From the IMG/VR virus record IMGVR_UViG_2740892232_000009: 18,870 nt of DNA; one strand, 5' to 3'. The notes below the pieces were generated by a model. That model was not told the DNA's origin. It saw only the letters and a program-made list of their open reading frames with translations, and searched no databases. This DNA comes from a virus (taxonomy: Duplodnaviria > Heunggongvirae > Uroviricota > Caudoviricetes). Shown here piece by piece: positions 2,163 through 17,878 of this stretch (the stretch's first letter is position 1; each line of letters opens with the position of its first letter). The translations under genes were made by a program, and so were the position numbers.

Positions 2163-2351
2163 TCACGAGGACTGAAGTCTCTCGCAATTAAAATTTATCA
2201 GTTTTACTTTCTGCTCTCTGGAAACGGCTGCTTCTTTTTTACCTGAGAGCATTTTTTCGCATTCTGATTTCGTTAGTTTAGATTTTGAATATCTTGTCCA
2301 GTTAGTAGGAGTGCCACCTTCCTTTTCAATAGTGGCGGTAATTTTATACAT
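2163..2351 (-). CDS. ydaC: Small Rac-prophage protein of unknown function (62 aa)
   Basis: ATG at 2351 directly preceded by GGAGGTG on the minus strand. Sits between xis and ralR as in Rac. Longer ORF-track start at 2423 would overlap ralR. Confidence 0.6.
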   Translation of the reverse strand: MYKITATIEKEGGTPTNWTRYSKSKLTKSECEKMLSGKKEAAVSREQKVKLINFNCERLQSS

Positions 2352-2538
2352 GAACACCTCCATTATTATTTCCAGTGGTTCGTTTATTCCATCTTTCGAG
2401 TGCTTCTTTTTCACTTCCACCATAACCGGTTCGGGATTCGCATCCGTTACACTTCGCTCGGTAATATCCTGAAATGGCTTTCACCGTTACTGATGGACAA
2501 CCACAAAATGGACATGGTTTAACATTGTCATATCTCAT
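2344..2538 (-). CDS. ralR: Restriction-alleviation protein (Lar/RalR family, 64 aa)
   Basis: Translation MRYDNVKPCPFCGCPSVTVKAISGYYRAKCNGCESRTGYGG..., with the CPFCG and CNGC zinc-ribbon-like Cys pairs. ATG at 2538. Confidence 0.85.
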   Translation of the reverse strand: MRYDNVKPCPFCGCPSVTVKAISGYYRAKCNGCESRTGYGGSEKEALERWNKRTTGNNNGGVHV

Positions 2539-9539: not shown

Positions 9540-10397
9540 ATGCTGTTTGTGCTTATTCTAAGCAACCGGGCAGCATCATACGGGGCAATTATGGCCGCAT
9601 TACCATACATGCAACTGTACATAGCTGATTACCTGGCTGACACCATGCATTTGTCAGCAGAGGAGCATGGTGCGTATTTGTTGCTGATGTTCAATTACTG
9701 GCAAACAGGAAAGCCAATACCTAAAAACAGGCTGGCAAAAATTGCCCGTCTGACTAACGAGCGATGGGCTGATGTTGAACCATCCTTGCAGGAGTTTTTT
9801 TGCGATAACGGCGAGGAATGGGTGCATCTTCGGATTGAGGAAGATCTGGCATCAGTCAGGGAAAAATTAACCAAAAAATCAGCCGCAGGAAAAGCATCTG
9901 TTCAGGCCAGAAGAAGCAGAAAGGAAGCAGATGTTCAAACAAAACAAGAGAGAAATTTAACAGGTGTTCAAACAGATGTTGAAGTGGTGTTTGAACATGA
10001 TGTCAACACAAAGGCAACTAATAAAGATACAGATAAAGATCTAAAAAAAGATCCCCCCCTAAATCCCCCCCGGGGGAATCGAGGTGTCAAAAAGTTTGAC
10101 CCTCTGGATATTGCTTTGCCGAACTGGATTTCTGTCTCGCTTTGGCGTGAGTGGGTTGAATTTCGCCAGGCATTGCGTAAACCGATTCGAACGGAGCAGG
10201 GCGCTAACGGGGCGATACGGGAGCTGGAAAAATTCCGCCAGCAGGGTTTTTCACCTGAGCAGGTGATTCGACACAGCATCGCCAATGAATACCAGGGCTT
10301 GTTCGCGCCAAAAGGTGTTCGACCTGAGACGTTACTCCGACAGGTTAACACCGTCTCGTTACCGGATAGTGCGATCCCGCCAGGCTTCAGGGGGTAA
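9540..10397 (+). CDS. ydaU: YdaU-like replication-module protein (285 aa), function not established
   Basis: Long ORF directly upstream of the DnaC-like gene. Alternative start ATG at 9591 has a slightly better upstream G-run. Acidic/basic low-complexity middle (KDTDKDLKKDPPLNPPRGNRG). Confidence 0.7.
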   Translation: MLFVLILSNRAASYGAIMAALPYMQLYIADYLADTMHLSAEEHGAYLLLMFNYWQTGKPIPKNRLAKIARLTNERWADVEPSLQEFFCDNGEEWVHLRIEEDLASVREKLTKKSAAGKASVQARRSRKEADVQTKQERNLTGVQTDVEVVFEHDVNTKATNKDTDKDLKKDPPLNPPRGNRGVKKFDPLDIALPNWISVSLWREWVEFRQALRKPIRTEQGANGAIRELEKFRQQGFSPEQVIRHSIANEYQGLFAPKGVRPETLLRQVNTVSLPDSAIPPGFRG

Positions 10398-10403
10398 CTG
10401 ACC

Positions 10404-11150
10404 ATGAAAAATATTGCGGCAGGCGGCATTCTTGAACGTATCCGTAGACTGGCCCCGCCACATGTAACCGCCCCATTCAAAACGGTAGCGGAGTGGCGCG
10501 AGTGGCAACTTTCCGAAGGCCAGAAACGTTGTGAGGAGATCAACCGTCAGAATCGTCAGTTGCGGGTGGAAAAAATTCTGAATCGCTCTGGCATCCAGCC
10601 ATTGCACCGCAAATGCTCGTTTTCGAATTACCAGGTGCAGAACGAAGGGCAGCGATACGCGTTGAGTCAGGCGAAATCCATCGCTGATGAACTGATGACC
10701 GGGTGTACAAATTTTGCGTTCAGCGGAAAACCTGGTACCGGGAAGAACCACTTAGCGGCAGCTATCGGGAATCACCTGCTGAAAGACGGTCAGACAGTGA
10801 TTGTGGTTACCGTGGCTGATGTTATGAGTGCCCTGCACGCCAGCTATGACGATGGGCAGTCAGGCGAAAAATTTTTGCGGGAACTGTGCGAAGTGGATCT
10901 GCTGGTTCTTGATGAAATTGGCATTCAGCGCGAGACGAAAAACGAGCAGGTGGTACTGCACCAGATTGTTGATCGCCGGACAGCGTCGATGCGCAGCGTG
11001 GGGATGCTGACAAACCTGAACTATGAGGCCATGAAAACATTGCTCGGCGAGCGGATTATGGATCGCATGACCATGAACGGCGGGCGATGGGTGAATTTTA
11101 ACTGGGAGAGCTGGCGTCCGAATGTCGTCCAGCCAGGAATTGCGAAGTAA
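10404..11150 (+). CDS. ydaV: DnaC-like AAA+ helicase-loader / replication protein (248 aa)
   Basis: Walker [11 protein letters not shown] and Walker [10 protein letters not shown] are visible in the translation. Position matches the lambdoid P/DnaC-like gene. Confidence 0.85.
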
Positions 11151-11172
11151 TTTTTACCGGGAGAAAAATTTA

Positions 11173-11934
11173 ATGGAGACTGTTTTTGACGCACTGAAAG
11201 CAATGGGAAAAGCCACATCCATAGAACTTGCTGCGCGACTTGATATCAGTCGTGAAGAAGTGCTGAACGAACTATGGGAACTGAAAAAGGCTGGTTTTGT
11301 TGATAAAAGCGCGTACACCTGGCGTGTGGCTGATAACAACGTTCAGCAGGAACAGCCAGCGCAGGCAGAACTGCCGGAAGAAACCACCACAGCAACAGTA
11401 GCGAAAATCTCAGAGTGCGATTTAACCGCGACGATTGAACAACGCGGACCACAAACGGCTGATGAGTTGGCTACATTGTTCGGTACCACATCACGCAAAG
11501 TGGCTTCAACGCTGGCAATGGCTATCAGCAAAGGTCGTCTGATTCGCATTAATCAGAACGGTAAATTTCGTTACTGCATACCGGGTGATAATTTACCAGC
11601 AGAGCCGAAAGTTGAATCGGTAGCGGAAACCGATGGTAAAGCCTTTCCTCAGCCAGCAGGTGTTGCGTTACCAGTACAGGAAGCTGCAACACAGGAAGAT
11701 ATTAAAACAGAAACTGTGGCTGATATTGTGCAGTCGTTGCCATCGTTTACTGAAACGCGAGCGGATGACCTGGTTTTACCATCGCTGCATATGGCAAACC
11801 GCGAATTGCGTCGGGCGAAAAGTCATGTCCAGAAGTGGGAGCGAGTCTGCGCCGCGCTGCGGGAGCTGAACAAGCACCGGGATATTGTTCGACAGATTAC
11901 GGATTCTTCCCGCCGTATTGTATCGGAAAAGTGA
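11173..11934 (+). CDS. ydaW: YdaW-like protein with repeated HTH-like segments (253 aa from ATG 11173)
   Basis: Translation [43 protein letters not shown]..., with a second similar segment [36 protein letters not shown] lies 9 nt upstream of the ATG. The ORF-track start at 11122 overlaps ydaV. Confidence 0.65.
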
Positions 11935-11949
11935 TTGCCGGAGGCGCTT

Positions 11950-12279
11950 ATGGCAAAAGTATTTACACAAGAAGGGCGGGAAAAAATTAAAGGGCAGGTT
12001 GTTGAACTCGTGCGCCATAGTGGGCGCGAGACGTTACGACAACTGGAAGCTAAGACAGGTGCGACAAGATATCTGATGAACCTTCTTGCCAGAGAATTGG
12101 TTGCGAGCGGTGATGTATACAACTCTGGTTACGGGTTATTTCCCTCAGAACAGGTTCGTAAAGACTGGCAAAACGCCCGCAAAAAACTATCAAGGGCAAA
12201 GGTGAAGAAACCGGTTGTGGTTGATCCTGACCTTATCTGGTCATTACCTGACGGAGAAATCCGTCGCCTTAGTCTTTGA
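11950..12279 (+). CDS. Hypothetical protein (109 aa) with one HTH-like segment resembling those in YdaW
   Basis: ATG 11950 preceded by GGAGG (11940-11944) with 5-nt spacer. Segment ETLRQLEAKTGATRYLMNLLARELVASGDVY. No family recognised. Confidence 0.55.
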   Translation: MAKVFTQEGREKIKGQVVELVRHSGRETLRQLEAKTGATRYLMNLLARELVASGDVYNSGYGLFPSEQVRKDWQNARKKLSRAKVKKPVVVDPDLIWSLPDGEIRRLSL

Positions 12280-12314
12280 TAATAGGTTTATAATGTTGAA
12301 AAAGAGTCTAATAG

Positions 12315-12347
12315 TTGACATTGTATGAAATATGATTGTTATATAAA
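12315..12347 (+). promoter_or_regulatory. Promoter-like element upstream of the NTPase gene
   Basis: Perfect -35 hexamer TTGACA at 12315-12320, followed 18-19 bp later by an A/T-rich -10-like stretch TTATATAAA (12339-12347), about 35 bp before the ATG at 12381. Confidence 0.45.
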
Positions 12348-12380
12348 ATGATTTTTTTGGATACTGTTTAAGGTAAACAA

Positions 12381-14639
12381 ATGAAACCAGAATACTTAAG
12401 AAAAATAGAATCATTGCAACGTGAGGTTGATGATTTCCATCCAGTGCTAAGAGCGCTTCTACCACGTTTGCCGACTGTTACACATGTTGAATATAAGCAA
12501 GGACCATCAGAAAAAGGTGCTGATTTTGTCATAATTAAACGAGATGAGGCATTAGACGAGGAAATATATATTGGTGTTATTTGTAAAGTTGGAAAGATAA
12601 TTCAGTCAAATAGTGAGGTTGAACGACAAATAGAAGAGTGTCAATTATATCCACGCTTTATTTCTTCTGGCTCTAAGAACATACATTTGAATGAAATTTG
12701 GGTTATTACTAATTCATCGATCTCAAATAATGCTCAAGAAAAAATTTACTTGAAATTCAAATCTACAAATATAAAATTTATAGAGGGTGAAAAAATATGT
12801 TCTTTAATCAGTAAATATTACCCAGAGTTTTGGGATTTCGAATCCATTAATTATGAACAATACTTAACAGATACATTGCAAACCATAAGTGATACACCTG
12901 AAAGCTCTTTTTTTGGTAGTGTTGGCATAAATAACCTTATTGATAGATATGTAAGCAAGGAAGATCATAAAAAACGCAGACACAGGCCGTTAAAACTGTA
13001 TAGTGTTGTGAGAGCCGAGAGATTTATTTTTTTAGAGGGAACCGTTGGCTCTGGGAAAAGTACTTTGCTGAAACAGTTAATTAGAAAAATAAAAGAAGAA
13101 TATTCTTACGAAAAAGACTACATCCTTCCAGTATTTTGTCAATACAAGGATGTTCTAGAAAAAAAACTTAATGTTGAAAATATAATACAAAGTGTGTTAA
13201 GTAAGTACAAAATACAACATGATGGGAATATTTTATTAATTGTTGATTCGGTGGATGAAGTAAAGGAATCACTTGAGGAAAGGCAAAACAACTTCAGGGA
13301 CATTGTAGAGAAAGTATCCAGGAATGATAAAATTCGATTACTAGTTGCTTCAAGAATTATGGATTCTCTTCAGGACTATGAAGTTATCGATCAGATGTTT
13401 GCAAGATACTCGATAATACCACTTAGCACAGGTCAAATAATCGACTTTGTAGATAAAATCTGCAATGACATTAAAATAACAAATAAACTTAAAAATGGTA
13501 TAGAAAAAACACCACTATTTAAGTTCATTCCCAGGACTCCAGTGAGCGCTATTCTTCTGGCAAGAATACTCTCTGATGAGATTAAAGAATTACCATCTAC
13601 AATGACAGAACTATACTCAAAATACAGTGAGATAGTATTGGGACGATGGGATACATCTAAGGGATTATTATCGCAAACAGAATATGATGTAATAAGTAAT
13701 ATATTAGTAGAAATTGCGATATTTATGATGGATAACTCTCTAAACTGCATATCAATTTCAGAAGTGCAGGACATGTTTTTAAATTATTTGGCCAAAAGAA
13801 ACTTGAATGTTGATGAGGACAAACTTTTCAAAAGACTAATTTATCGCAGTGAAGTAACAACAGTTAATGTTAGAAGTAATACGTTCTCATTTCTACACAG
13901 ATCATTCATGGAGTATTTTTACGCTGAAGGACTTAGGAAGCGTGGCCTAATAGACATAAATGATAATATTTATGATATTTATTGGGCAAATAGTTATTTC
14001 TTCTATTTTGGTTTGTTAAGAGACAATGAATATCTTATTGATAAAATTAATGAACTTAAACCTAGTAACGATAAAACAAGATTTTTAAGGTTATTTTATA
14101 ACGGTTCTTTTTATTTGGCTTCATATCTAACTCCGTATAAAAAAATAACGAGGGGAGTCCTTTTATCATATATAGATGCAGGTAAATTATATGTTGATAT
14201 TCTCAAGGGAAATACCGACATCCCGCTGAAGGAGTTTTCACCAGTAGCTCTTCTTTGTATTTTCACAAAGTGTTTAAGTAACAATTACGCATATGATTTT
14301 TTCAAATCTGCCTTGGAAGACTTGTCAGTTCAAATTGAACAATATGAGGAAATTGGTGAACATATTGATTATGCACGTTTCTTCATAGCATCAACACTGA
14401 ATGAGCTCGGGGATAAATCCGCATTTGATAGCTTAGTGGAAAAAAATAAATTAGGTGTTTTGATTAATTTAGGGATAACTCACGTTACAGACGACTCAGG
14501 GCTACTTAGCACTACGGTTGATAAGTACCTGAAAAAATTCAATAAAAAAGTACGAAGTAACCATGATATGTCTAATTATATATCTAAGTTATATGAGGAA
14601 TCTACAGGTTCCTTACGTACAAACCTGCAAATTCAATAA
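12381..14639 (+). CDS. STAND / NACHT-type P-loop NTPase (752 aa) with N-terminal restriction-endonuclease-like (Mrr-like) region; candidate antiphage defence protein
   Basis: Walker A LEGTVGSGKST (residues 218-228, nt 13032-13064). Walker B with the NACHT acidic pair LLIVDSVDE (286-294). Sensor-1-like LLVASR (320-325). N-terminal GPSEKGADFVII ... EIYIGVICK resembles the Mrr catalytic motifs. Gene is visibly AT-rich relative to its flanks. Confidence 0.7.
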   Translation: MKPEYLRKIESLQREVDDFHPVLRALLPRLPTVTHVEYKQGPSEKGADFVIIKRDEALDEEIYIGVICKVGKIIQSNSEVERQIEECQLYPRFISSGSKNIHLNEIWVITNSSISNNAQEKIYLKFKSTNIKFIEGEKICSLISKYYPEFWDFESINYEQYLTDTLQTISDTPESSFFGSVGINNLIDRYVSKEDHKKRRHRPLKLYSVVRAERFIFLEGTVGSGKSTLLKQLIRKIKEEYSYEKDYILPVFCQYKDVLEKKLNVENIIQSVLSKYKIQHDGNILLIVDSVDEVKESLEERQNNFRDIVEKVSRNDKIRLLVASRIMDSLQDYEVIDQMFARYSIIPLSTGQIIDFVDKICNDIKITNKLKNGIEKTPLFKFIPRTPVSAILLARILSDEIKELPSTMTELYSKYSEIVLGRWDTSKGLLSQTEYDVISNILVEIAIFMMDNSLNCISISEVQDMFLNYLAKRNLNVDEDKLFKRLIYRSEVTTVNVRSNTFSFLHRSFMEYFYAEGLRKRGLIDINDNIYDIYWANSYFFYFGLLRDNEYLIDKINELKPSNDKTRFLRLFYNGSFYLASYLTPYKKITRGVLLSYIDAGKLYVDILKGNTDIPLKEFSPVALLCIFTKCLSNNYAYDFFKSALEDLSVQIEQYEEIGEHIDYARFFIASTLNELGDKSAFDSLVEKNKLGVLINLGITHVTDDSGLLSTTVDKYLKKFNKKVRSNHDMSNYISKLYEESTGSLRTNLQIQ

Positions 14640-14650
14640 TAAATAGATTG

Positions 14651-14685
14651 TCACATTGAAGGTAACGTATCGACCTTCAATGTGA
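14651..14685 (+). terminator. Perfect 13-bp inverted repeat (TCACATTGAAGGT / ACCTTCAATGTGA, 9-nt loop) 11 bp after the NTPase stop; possible terminator
   Basis: Arms at 14651-14663 and 14673-14685. The downstream tract is only moderately U-rich, so intrinsic-terminator function is uncertain. Confidence 0.4.
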
Positions 14686-15007
14686 TGATTATCCTCTTGA
14701 TAATATAGCTTAAGCTACTTTCGACTTTCTGAGACAAAGAGATTGCAGAATGTATCAATCATAGTGAAGCTATCGTAAATGTTCGCACGTCGCTCAAATC
14801 AGATAGTCATATTTGAGTGAACTGCTTACTCAAAATGCTGGTTGGGGCCTGACTTAATACATCTGAAGAAGTGTTGGTTATGTTTGGCTGTTGTGTTCCA
14901 TTGCCAAAGAAAAAATAGATAAACTATACCCAATAGTTGTATTGAATCACTGACGAGACAGCCTCATATTTATCAGGACTGGTGTGCGTCCAATACAGGA
15001 GGTTGTC

Positions 15008-15097
15008 GTGCTGGTTCTCAAATGTGCGCTGGCTATTGCTGCTGTAATAGCAATTTATTGTCTTGCTGTTGTTCTTATGGATCGCCTTTCTGATTGA
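15008..15097 (+). CDS. Candidate small hydrophobic peptide (29 aa), single predicted transmembrane helix
   Basis: AGGAGG at 14997-15002, 5-nt spacer, GTG at 15008. Translation (M)LVLKCALAIAAVIAIYCLAVVLMDRLSD, stop TGA 15095-15097. Promoter-like TTGAAT (14942-14947), 17 bp, CATATT (14965-14970) upstream. Confidence 0.4.
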   Translation: MLVLKCALAIAAVIAIYCLAVVLMDRLSD

Positions 15098-15308
15098 TTT
15101 TATATTGGCGAGGTGACGGGAGTTAAGTAGAATTGCTGCGGGTGCTTGAGGCTATCTGCCTCGGGCATGAACACCAAAGGCAGATAGAGAAAAGCCCCAG
15201 TTAACATTACGCGTCCGGCAAGACGCTTAACATTAATCTGAGGCCAATTTCATGCTTTGCACATGTAGGTTAGCCTCTTACGTGCCGAAAGGCAAGGAGA
15301 AGCAGGCT

Positions 15309-15464
15309 ATGAAGCAGCAAAAGGCGATGTTAATCGCCCTGATCGTCATCTGTTTAACCGTCATTGTGACGGCACTGGTAACGAGGAAAGACCTCTGCGA
15401 GGTACGAATCCGAACCGGGCAGACGGAGGTCGCTGTCTTCACAGCTTACGAACCTGAGGAGTAA
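15309..15464 (+). CDS. hokD: Hok-family type I toxin (51 aa)
   Basis: Translation MKQQKAMLIALIVICLTVIVTALVTRKDLCEVRIRTGQTEVAVFTAYEPEE. AGGAG at 15295-15299 upstream of ATG 15309. An in-frame upstream ATG at 15252 gives the 70-aa ORF-track version. Confidence 0.85.
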   Translation: MKQQKAMLIALIVICLTVIVTALVTRKDLCEVRIRTGQTEVAVFTAYEPEE

Positions 15465-15471
15465 GAGACCG

Positions 15472-15493
15472 GGCGAGGGAGAAATCCCTCGCC
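15472..15493 (+). other. 9-bp stem with GAAA tetraloop (GGCGAGGGA-GAAA-TCCCTCGCC), 8 bp after the hokD stop; 3' structure of the hok mRNA or weak terminator
   Basis: Perfect complementarity read directly from the sequence; no U-tract follows. Confidence 0.45.
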
Positions 15494-15930
15494 ACCTCTG
15501 ATGTATTATGCATCCTCAACGCACCCACACTTAACCAGCTTTGGCGGGTTTATTTTATCTGTAAATATTTTTATAAAAATAATGCCCACGCACAGCATAA
15601 AACAAAAAGTATTACAGATAAAAAAGGAGCGTAATGTGCAGATTTGTTGTTTTCCATATTTACTCACCTTAATATGATTAATCCTGATAGGGTTGTTATT
15701 TCAGTGGTTTTCAAATGAGATATTATGGTGATCTGGTAGATTTGCATAACATTAAAATTTAATTTGTTTAACCGCTTTTAATAATAAGCGTTGTTTTTAT
15801 CCCAGCAATCTGTTGTTTGGTTTTTATTCCATCAATGTGGGGGCTTTACACTGGAATCAGTTTATTTATACTTTATACGTCGGCCTGAACAACTGGCATC
15901 TGCTGCACTGCGCCATCGAGAGATTGACAA

Positions 15931-16530
15931 ATGGCGCATATACAACTGGTCAAACAAACCTCTTCTGGTTTACTTCTCCCGGCGACGCCGGAGAGTTGCG
16001 ATTTCCTGCATCAAATCAAAATAGGTGAGTGGATACACGCAGACTTTAAGCGTGTGCGTAACTACGCATTCCACAAGCGTTTTTTCAAACTCCTGCAACT
16101 GGGATTCGATTACTGGACTCCGGTCGGTGGGGCGATCACGCCTCGCGAACGAGAACTGCTGTCTGGTTTCGTTGATTACCTGTGCGAATCAGTTGGTCGG
16201 GAACACACGCCAGCCCTGAGTGATGCCGCAGAGCAATATCTGAATACAGTTGCGACACGCAGAACTCGGGATACGGCATTGCTAAAGTCGTTTGAGGCTT
16301 TTCGCGAGTGGGTAACCATTCAGGCTGGATTTTACACCGAACATTTTTATCCGGACGGTAGCCATGGGCGTCGGGCGAAATCCATCGCTTTTGCGAATAT
16401 GGACGAAACCGAGTTTCAGCAGGTTTATAAATCTGTTCTGAATGTGCTGTGGAACTGGATTCTGTTCCGTAAATTTTCCTCTCCGGAACAAGTCGAAAAT
16501 GTGGCCGCGCAGCTGCTGGAGTTTGCGTAA
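15931..16530 (+). CDS. nin-region protein of unknown function (199 aa), upstream of and coupled to the YbcO-like gene
   Basis: ATG 15931; stop TAA 16528-16530 overlaps the next start (TAATG). Family not confidently recognised; position corresponds to the lambdoid nin region. Confidence 0.6.
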   Translation: MAHIQLVKQTSSGLLLPATPESCDFLHQIKIGEWIHADFKRVRNYAFHKRFFKLLQLGFDYWTPVGGAITPRERELLSGFVDYLCESVGREHTPALSDAAEQYLNTVATRRTRDTALLKSFEAFREWVTIQAGFYTEHFYPDGSHGRRAKSIAFANMDETEFQQVYKSVLNVLWNWILFRKFSSPEQVENVAAQLLEFA

Positions 16531-16820
16531 TGGTGGATTTACGTAAAGCGGCGCGGGGGCAGATGTGCACCGTCAGAATTCCTGGCTACTGCAATCACGA
16601 TCCGGAAACGTCTGTGCTGGCGCATTACCGACTGGCGGGAACGTGCGGAATAGCGACAAAACCACACGATATGCAGGCGGCGATTGCCTGTAGCTCATGC
16701 CACGATCTAATCGACGGGCGGGTAAAAACCAGCGATTACACCAAAGAAGAATTACGCCTGATGCATGCAGAAGGTGTTTTTCGCACACAAGAAATCTGGA
16801 GAAAGGAGGGATATTTGTGA
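16530..16820 (+). CDS. YbcO-like Cys-rich protein (96 aa), putative metal-binding nuclease family
   Basis: Translation MVDLRKAARGQMCTVRIPGYCNHDPETSVLAHYRLAGTCGIATKPHDMQAAIACSSCHDLIDGR... closely resembles recalled DLP12 YbcO. Cys spacing C13, C21, C39, C54, C57. Confidence 0.75.
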   Translation: MVDLRKAARGQMCTVRIPGYCNHDPETSVLAHYRLAGTCGIATKPHDMQAAIACSSCHDLIDGRVKTSDYTKEELRLMHAEGVFRTQEIWRKEGYL

Positions 16821-17359
16821 TTTACCCAACGAATACAGGAAAAAGCGGAGAACACCTTCGTCTCGCCACGCTGGAAAGTGTCTGGATTCAGGGCAAACTG
16901 CGTATGTGGGGGCGCTGGTCGTATATTGGCGGTGGCAGGTCAGGAAATATGTTCAATCAGTTGTTGGCATCCAAAAAATTGACGAAAACAGCCATCAATG
17001 AAGCCCTGCGCAGAATGAAAAAAGCGGGAATAGAGAAAGCTGAGCTGGAAGCGTTTTTGAGAGAGATGATCAACGGCAAGCAAAAGAGCTGGCTGGCGCA
17101 TTGTACTGATGCAGAGGCGTTATGTATTGATCGGGTCATAAGTGAGGTGCTGGCAGAGCATCCAGGATTGATTAGCGTCCTTCGGCAACGGTATGAGGGG
17201 CGGGGGATGACCAAACGCAAAATGGCTGAATTGCTAAATGATGCACACCCAGAGTGGTGTTTTAGCACATGCGAAAAGCGAATTGCTAATTGGTTGGCCG
17301 TTGCTGAGTATGCGCTATACATTCCCATGCGAGAATCATTCGCTCAAAAAACGGCTTGA
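16817..17359 (+). CDS. Q-like late-gene antiterminator (180 aa from GTG 16817)
   Basis: GTG at 16817 overlaps the YbcO-like stop (GTGA) and is preceded by AGGAGGG with 6-nt spacer. Translation contains ESVWIQGKLRMWGRWSY. Position is last before the tRNA / lysis region. The ORF-track start at 16697 is an out-of-context extension. Confidence 0.65.
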   Translation: MIYPTNTGKSGEHLRLATLESVWIQGKLRMWGRWSYIGGGRSGNMFNQLLASKKLTKTAINEALRRMKKAGIEKAELEAFLREMINGKQKSWLAHCTDAEALCIDRVISEVLAEHPGLISVLRQRYEGRGMTKRKMAELLNDAHPEWCFSTCEKRIANWLAVAEYALYIPMRESFAQKTA

Positions 17360-17724: not shown

Positions 17725-17800
<76 letters not shown>

Positions 17801-17803
17801 TAT

Positions 17804-17878
<75 letters not shown>

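Follow-up and report, generated by a model that had tools for sequence, protein, structure and literature searches.

Bacterial NACHT clade 6 and the locus under study

Clade 6 of the bacterial NACHT (bNACHT) proteins is described as bearing an NCH1 domain (PMC12169576). It includes bNACHT25, the protein WP_001702659.1 (Conte et al. 2025, PMC12169576), which was described from E. coli ECOR11 (Kibby et al., bioRxiv 10.1101/2022.07.19.500537), and its relative bNACHT32. The gene analyzed here is located at positions 12381..14639 (+) of the virus record IMGVR_UViG_2740892232_000009 (Duplodnaviria; Heunggongvirae; Uroviricota; Caudoviricetes), whose complete stretch of 18,870 nt is referred to as the window and provides the coordinates used throughout. 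The open reading frame (ORF) is real, as given in an initial annotation made from the letters of the window alone; it starts with ATG and codes for a protein of 752 amino acids (WP_033801850.1). Judged from its sequence, this gene is very probably a naturally occurring allele of bNACHT25. The latter forms an NLR-like antiphage system consisting of one protein and is placed in bacterial NACHT clade 6.

Both bNACHT25 and bNACHT32 lose defence in the D48A mutant, and both block MS2-like single-stranded RNA phages of the genus Emesvirus, but not Qbeta-like phages (PMC12169576). bNACHT25 furthermore defends against T2 and T4; upon MS2 infection it causes D48-dependent degradation of plasmid DNA, and at a multiplicity of infection of 2 growth halts (PMC12169576). 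Exchanges of the winged-helix histidine (H506L or H506P, equivalent to H443 of NLRC4) as well as S508P render bNACHT25 toxic without phage, the D48A exchange rescues the toxicity of the histidine mutant, and T5 orf015 counteracts it (bioRxiv 10.1101/2022.07.19.500537). Defence of bNACHT25 against T2 and T4 is abolished by deletion of dnaJ or by the J-domain mutants H33Q and D35N, and DnaJ must be able to work with DnaK (PMC12169576). Since hyperactive H506L degrades DNA even in the absence of dnaJ (PMC12169576), DnaJ is placed upstream, in sensing. With regard to phage range and to its dependence on D48 and dnaJ, bNACHT32 matches bNACHT25 (PMC12169576). The bNACHT constructs used in these studies relied on their native upstream regions for expression (PMC12169576; bioRxiv 10.1101/2022.07.19.500537).

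Relationship to bNACHT25 and bNACHT32

A gap-free alignment of the window protein with WP_001702659.1 reveals 743 of 752 identical residues (98.8%). Strain CFSAN061771 carries the window protein as WP_033801850.1, while WP_001702659.1 itself is found in E. coli LC-1302-2020, where its gene occupies the same prophage slot. Common to both proteins are the length of 752 amino acids, the residues D48, K226, H506 and S508, the DSVDE motif, the order of domains and the location behind the same truncated DUF977 gene. They differ by nine conservative or variable-position substitutions, which read from bNACHT25 to the window protein are V109I, K235R, I265V, S315N, V318I, M447I, T499S, A590T, and H609K. 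Downstream of the gene, the window retains hokD/sok, whereas the copy in LC-1302-2020 is followed by an IS3 element. bNACHT32 (WP_057688292.1; P0141 in the cluster look-up) is 82% identical to the window protein over 749 amino acids, again without gaps, in agreement with the published value of 81% between bNACHT25 and bNACHT32 (PMC12169576). It shows the same architecture and key residues at 18% divergence, but members of its 90%-identity cluster come from the Enterobacter cloacae complex and from a plasmid of Enterobacter kobei and not from the Rac slot.

The candidate antiphage STAND protein proposed in the initial annotation is thus nearly identical to a protein with experimentally shown defence activity (PMC12169576; bioRxiv 10.1101/2022.07.19.500537). 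The suggestion made there that it may belong to an uncharacterized clade does not hold, as the protein falls into the characterized clade 6. Protein, architecture, effector activity and DnaJ-dependent sensing are already published, and the object as such is known and of little discovery value.

Nine amino acid differences from the tested protein, e.g., H609K in NCH1 and M447I in the helical region, might have changed the trigger range or abolished the activity, and small changes in sensor regions are able to shift the specificity of STAND proteins. Moreover, bNACHT25 and bNACHT32 behave alike despite their distance, but were compared non-exhaustively (PMC12169576). Several observations nevertheless render such a change quite unlikely. 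All nine substituted positions belong to variable columns of a family alignment of 36 members with identities down to 31%; the window states I109 and I318 represent the commoner state of the family and K609 is tied for the commonest. The two genes differ at 49 nucleotides, 38 of which fall into synonymous codons, and the resulting dN/dS of 0.063 (Nei-Gojobori) points to purifying selection. At 82% identity to the window protein, bNACHT32 retains phage range as well as D48 and dnaJ dependence (PMC12169576). Finally, most of the 18 E. coli genomes with this gene (see below) contain an intact ORF, although it is split in at least one of them, LD67-1.

Domain organization

The protein is composed of an N-terminal PD-(D/E)xK nuclease, a NACHT NTPase and NCH1, in this order. 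The effector domain, a Mrr-like DNase with D48 and K69, covers residues 1-150 (12381..12830, +). Two strings read as Mrr-like in the initial annotation, GPSEKGADFVII and EIYIGVICK, were found at residues 41-52 and 61-69, respectively. The match to the Pfam profile Mrr_cat remains below threshold (17.0 bits compared to a cut-off of 21, residues 23-143), and this profile matches only 10 of the 36 family members at E<=0.01. Because of this weak profile and of PDB sequence searches which returned nothing for the N-terminal nuclease, the assignment was checked by fold. An AF2 (AlphaFold2) model of residues 1-200, with a predicted local distance difference test score (pLDDT) of 81.4 and a predicted template modeling score (pTM) of 0.71, displays an alpha/beta core of the restriction-endonuclease fold. 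In the family alignment, the invariant N-terminal columns include E15, E44, D48, K69, Q83, and E105. The nuclease reading of the initial annotation is thereby upheld, with the sub-threshold profile match and the modeled fold in support, and the domain corresponds to the N-terminal PD-(D/E)xK DNase with catalytic D48 of clade 6.

The central NACHT module, consisting of a P-loop nucleotide-binding domain, a helical domain and a winged helix, comprises residues about 205-520 (12993..13940, +) with K226, D289, D292, E293, R325, H506, and S508 as key positions, and is supported by Pfam, conservation and Foldseek. The Pfam NACHT profile PF05729 scores 36.7 bits compared to a cut-off of 26.7 (residues 214-331) and matches 34 of the 36 family members (E<=0.01). 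The Walker A motif GTVGSGKST (residues 220-228) contains G223, G225, and K226, which are invariant in all 36 members, in line with GxxxxGK[ST]. Like this motif, LLVASR (320-325) and a PLS segment (347-349) are present as initially annotated. In case of Walker B, LLIVDSVDE was recognized correctly but numbered 286-294 instead of 285-293, so that the acidic residues are D289, D292, and E293, and the exchanges D290A/E294A proposed there as Walker-motif mutants would affect S290 and V294 instead. The signature D[GAS]hDE separates NACHT from other STAND NTPases (bioRxiv 10.1101/2022.07.19.500537), and DSVDE at 289-293 with its three invariant acidic residues fits this pattern. R325 and H506 are invariant as well, and residue 508 is either S or T.

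In the full-length AF2 model (pLDDT 82.2), nucleotide-binding, helical and winged-helix parts adopt the NACHT arrangement with H506 as winged-helix histidine. Foldseek ranks NOD2, NLRP3, and NLRC4 highest (E 4e-11 to 2e-10), followed by Avs4 and Avs3. Together with the Pfam score above cut-off and the DSVDE signature, these matches confirm the predicted NACHT/STAND NTPase. The animal NLRs NLRC4, NOD2, and NLRP3 share the fold of the NACHT module, H506 corresponds to H443 of NLRC4, and disease-type mutations hyperactivate both; in contrast, the window protein lacks an LRR (leucine-rich repeat) sensor and a CARD or PYD adaptor, and its effector is a fused nuclease instead of a recruited caspase.

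The C-terminal 400 residues had been regarded as a single sensor domain. They are in fact divided, the part up to ~520 representing the helical and winged-helix portions of the NACHT module and residues 576-741 (14106..14603, +) the NCH1 domain, which is recognized by Pfam PF22728 with 133 bits compared to a cut-off of 27 and is all-helical in the model. NCH1 was found in all 36 family members (profile, E<=0.01). Presence of this domain at the C-terminus agrees with clade 6, as do the identities of 98.8% and 82% to its members bNACHT25 and bNACHT32.

Membership in the Avs/AVAST systems (types 1-5) was considered and rejected on the basis of the NACHT signature, the NCH1 C-terminus and the missing match to PADLOC Avs profiles; its similarity to Avs4 is confined to structure. 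The Avs4 sensor is a large repeat-type domain. Avs4 (AVAST type 4) has about 1,500 amino acids and binds the phage portal directly (PDB 8dgf title), in contrast to the window protein with 752 amino acids, NCH1 and the NACHT-type D[GAS]hDE signature, whose near-identical relative bNACHT25 senses indirectly through DnaJ.

Mode of action

The window allele retains all residues probed in the published work on bNACHT25. From this conservation and the identity of 98.8% we infer the same mechanism, i.e., the window allele would provide defence, degrade DNA in a D48-dependent manner and depend on dnaJ. In the resting cell, the NACHT module probably holds the protein in an ADP-bound "off" state, with H506 of the winged helix as part of the lock. 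Phage infection would then perturb a host process running through DnaJ and its partnership with DnaK, and this DnaJ-linked perturbation would switch the NACHT module on. The activated module would release the N-terminal PD-(D/E)xK nuclease (D48, K69), upon which cellular DNA would be degraded, and at a high multiplicity of infection growth of the culture would stop, an abortive-infection-like outcome. Encoded in a prophage cassette, the protein probably protects the lysogen from other phages. The ADP lock, oligomerization and the exact DnaJ-linked ligand are presumed rather than observed in the literature as well.

Concerning the trigger, the coat protein of MS2 suffices for activation of bNACHT25, yet does not bind it directly (published bNACHT25 work). 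Recognition could alternatively follow the Avs type, with the C-terminal domain binding a phage protein and DnaJ merely presenting or folding this ligand. We consider this improbable, since the restricted phages, T2 and T4 on the one hand and the Emesvirus phages on the other, have no homologous proteins in common (published bNACHT25 work), no PADLOC Avs model matches the protein, and its C-terminus consists of NCH1 and not of a TPR-type sensor. Indirect sensing through DnaJ thus remains the favored explanation.

Several points weigh against transferring the bNACHT25 model to the window allele as a whole. The authors of the bNACHT25 work propose a guard-type mechanism with a presumed DnaJ-linked activating species, but call it incomplete. 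H609K in NCH1 and M447I are non-trivial exchanges in regions that may help sensing. In the nuclease domain, the residue two positions ahead of K69 is I67 (I or V in all family members) and not an acid, which departs from the textbook (D/E)xK motif; another part of the protein must therefore contribute the second metal ligand, and E15, E44, E86, and E105, all invariant or nearly so, are candidates. Likewise, promoter and terminator of the gene are putative elements only, as described in the next section.

Cargo cassette and prophage setting

The genomic context was derived from a RefSeq record in which the region of the NACHT gene is 100% and the surrounding 5.7 kb are 99.3% identical to the window. 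According to this record the gene resides in a Rac-type prophage whose integration site adjoins ttcA. Upstream are intR, xisR, rcbA, ralR, recT, recE, racC, ydaE, kilR, sieB, ydaF, and two repressor-type helix-turn-helix genes, followed closer to the NACHT gene by ydaT, ydaU, ydaV, a DUF1627 gene and the truncated DUF977 gene. Downstream, hokD and genes of the DUF1367, DUF1364, and DUF1133 families are succeeded by two tRNAs and then by the lysis genes. A slot between the replication and nin/Q modules, as initially annotated, agrees with this order, in which the replication-type genes ydaU, ydaV, DUF1627, and DUF977 precede and hokD, DUF1367, DUF1364, and DUF1133 follow the NACHT gene.

The left edge of the slot is formed by the truncated DUF977 (ydaW-like) gene at 11950..12267 (+), a RefSeq pseudogene without C-terminus, whose similarity to the intact DUF977 genes (141 amino acids) in two prophages with DUF977 and hokD but without a NACHT gene (L005 and L006) ends at 12267. 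In blastn comparisons to these prophages, similarity is lost at 12267/12268 and regained at 14865/14866, delimiting a cargo cassette of 2598 bp (12268..14865) with a single defence gene. GC content ranges from 0.22 to 0.38 within the cassette compared to about 0.50 outside; the gene itself has a GC content of 0.320 (0.268 at third codon positions), whereas the flanking blocks reach 0.495 (9540-12279) and 0.498 (15931-17359). Both the AT-richness relative to the neighboring prophage genes and the single-gene moron character noticed at the outset are borne out by the composition and the breakpoints. Within the Rac-type prophage at ttcA, the cassette takes the place of the 3' end of the DUF977 gene. 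A search of the cassette ends for terminal repeats, direct or inverted, was negative, and thus a transposon-type signature is lacking; the cassette has the appearance of a module exchanged into the slot by recombination.

The non-coding region upstream of the gene (12281..12380, +) contains a promoter-like TTGACA (12315-12320) and, separated by a spacer of 19 nt, TGtTATATA (12337-12345) as nearest -10-like element. The own promoter assumed in the initial annotation is accordingly upheld with regard to the perfect TTGACA, but an acceptable -10 hexamer is absent at a distance of 16-18 nt and the site was not called by a consensus scan. Promoter-like matches are not in excess in this region either (18 compared to 13.5 +/- 4.3 in shuffled sequences). 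A putative promoter upstream of the NACHT gene is nonetheless plausible. Starting 7 nt past the stop codon, a hairpin with an 18-bp stem and a 9-nt loop (14646..14690, +) was predicted by RNA folding (dG -25.5 kcal/mol, z = -5.4 compared to shuffles), including a perfectly complementary core of 13 nt. It is not followed by a T-run and was not called by a terminator scan, and we regard it as a candidate transcript end or stabilizer.

The prophage is rich in toxin-type genes (ralR/RalA, kilR, ydaT, hokD/sok) and hyperactive bNACHT25 alleles are toxic (bioRxiv 10.1101/2022.07.19.500537). Hence the NACHT gene might be an addiction or maintenance toxin of the prophage, with the nuclease killing cells that lose or disturb it and defence being of secondary importance. 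A partner antitoxin gene is missing from the cassette, however, and wild-type bNACHT25 is non-toxic when induced and protects when cloned away from the prophage (bioRxiv 10.1101/2022.07.19.500537; PMC12169576). Moreover, homologs are not confined to prophages but were also found on plasmids and in the vicinity of resolvase genes. Maintenance as the primary role is hence highly improbable compared to antiphage defence.

The window shows further features. In the RalR/RalA type I toxin-antitoxin system, the RalA small RNA (RF02694, 220 bits) at 2167-2345 (+) overlaps ralR at 2344-2538 (-). The hokD/sok type I locus spans 15140-15464 (+), with sok (RF01794, 115.8 bits) at 15140-15314 and the RefSeq hokD coding sequence at 15309-15464. 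Just upstream of it, an unannotated ORF of 29 codons at 15009-15097 (+), with a GTG start 5 nt after AGGAGG, encodes the strongly hydrophobic peptide VLVLKCALAIAAVIAIYCLAVVLMDRLSD and is kept in L005 and L006 with two amino acid changes; it could represent a small membrane peptide or merely a part of the hok leader. Genes for tRNA-Thr(TGT) and tRNA-Gly(TCC) are located at 17725-17878 (+), immediately behind the DUF1133 gene and ahead of a tolA-like fragment.

Distribution and alternative cargo of the slot

Among 5,426 complete E. coli genomes, megablast identified the gene region in 18, in each case as one chromosomal copy annotated as "NACHT domain-containing protein". At least 80% of the region is present in 17 of the 18 carriers. 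In E. coli LD67-1 (L003, 6083-8340) the NACHT gene is split into a "hypothetical protein" and a shorter NACHT protein, and several frameshifts occur in the neighboring prophage genes, which suggests decay of this copy or assembly errors.

With a threshold of E<=0.001, a homolog search yielded 176 proteins; of the 120 listed, the majority are full-length relatives with about 750-830 amino acids. Where a source is named among the matches listed, it nearly always belongs to the Gammaproteobacteria (Enterobacterales, Pseudomonas, Aeromonas, Marinobacter, and Stenotrophomonas). More distant family members are single genes in mobile settings as well, with a PIN/MazE pair or a resolvase gene as neighbor or located on Enterobacter and Pseudomonas plasmids. 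As no match was obtained with the INPHARED phage isolates (megablast, tblastn), the gene is one seen in prophages and plasmids and not in sequenced phage isolates. Scans against PADLOC-DB 2.0.0, NCBIfam, and PHROGs gave generic P-loop matches alone and no family-level assignment, the best PADLOC-DB 2.0.0 match being HerA with 23.6 bits, restricted to the P-loop.

In other E. coli genomes (L004, L005, and L006 among the loci compared) the same DUF977-hokD slot, bounded by sequences corresponding to window positions 11950-12267 and 14866-15551, is filled by different genes, the cargo comprising a Sll1717-family P-loop ATPase, a DUF5677 protein, an alpha/beta-hydrolase, QueH, KilA-N, ORF6N, DUF551, DUF4014, DUF7167, and several unnamed proteins. 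The Sll1717-family protein shows partial matches to the PADLOC candidate PDC-M36A, and some of the alternative cargo could be uncharacterized antiphage genes. Tentatively, and with rather more doubt than conviction, we propose the junction between DUF977 and hokD in prophages of the Rac type and their lambdoid relatives as a swap-in hotspot for single-gene defence cargo. Lambdoid replication needs DnaJ and DnaK. More speculatively, a DnaJ-guarding sensor whose gene immediately follows the replication genes of a lambdoid prophage might interact with this process.

In the present case, a reading of the sequence alone correctly identified an actual NLR-like defence gene together with its domains and catalytic strand. 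Defence annotation based on PADLOC-DB 2.0.0 would miss clade-6 bNACHT genes. The comparison places bNACHT25 in its natural setting, an AT-rich self-contained cassette of a Rac-type prophage at ttcA, on which the bNACHT25 papers dwell little, and the DUF977-hokD slot could be mined for more cargo.

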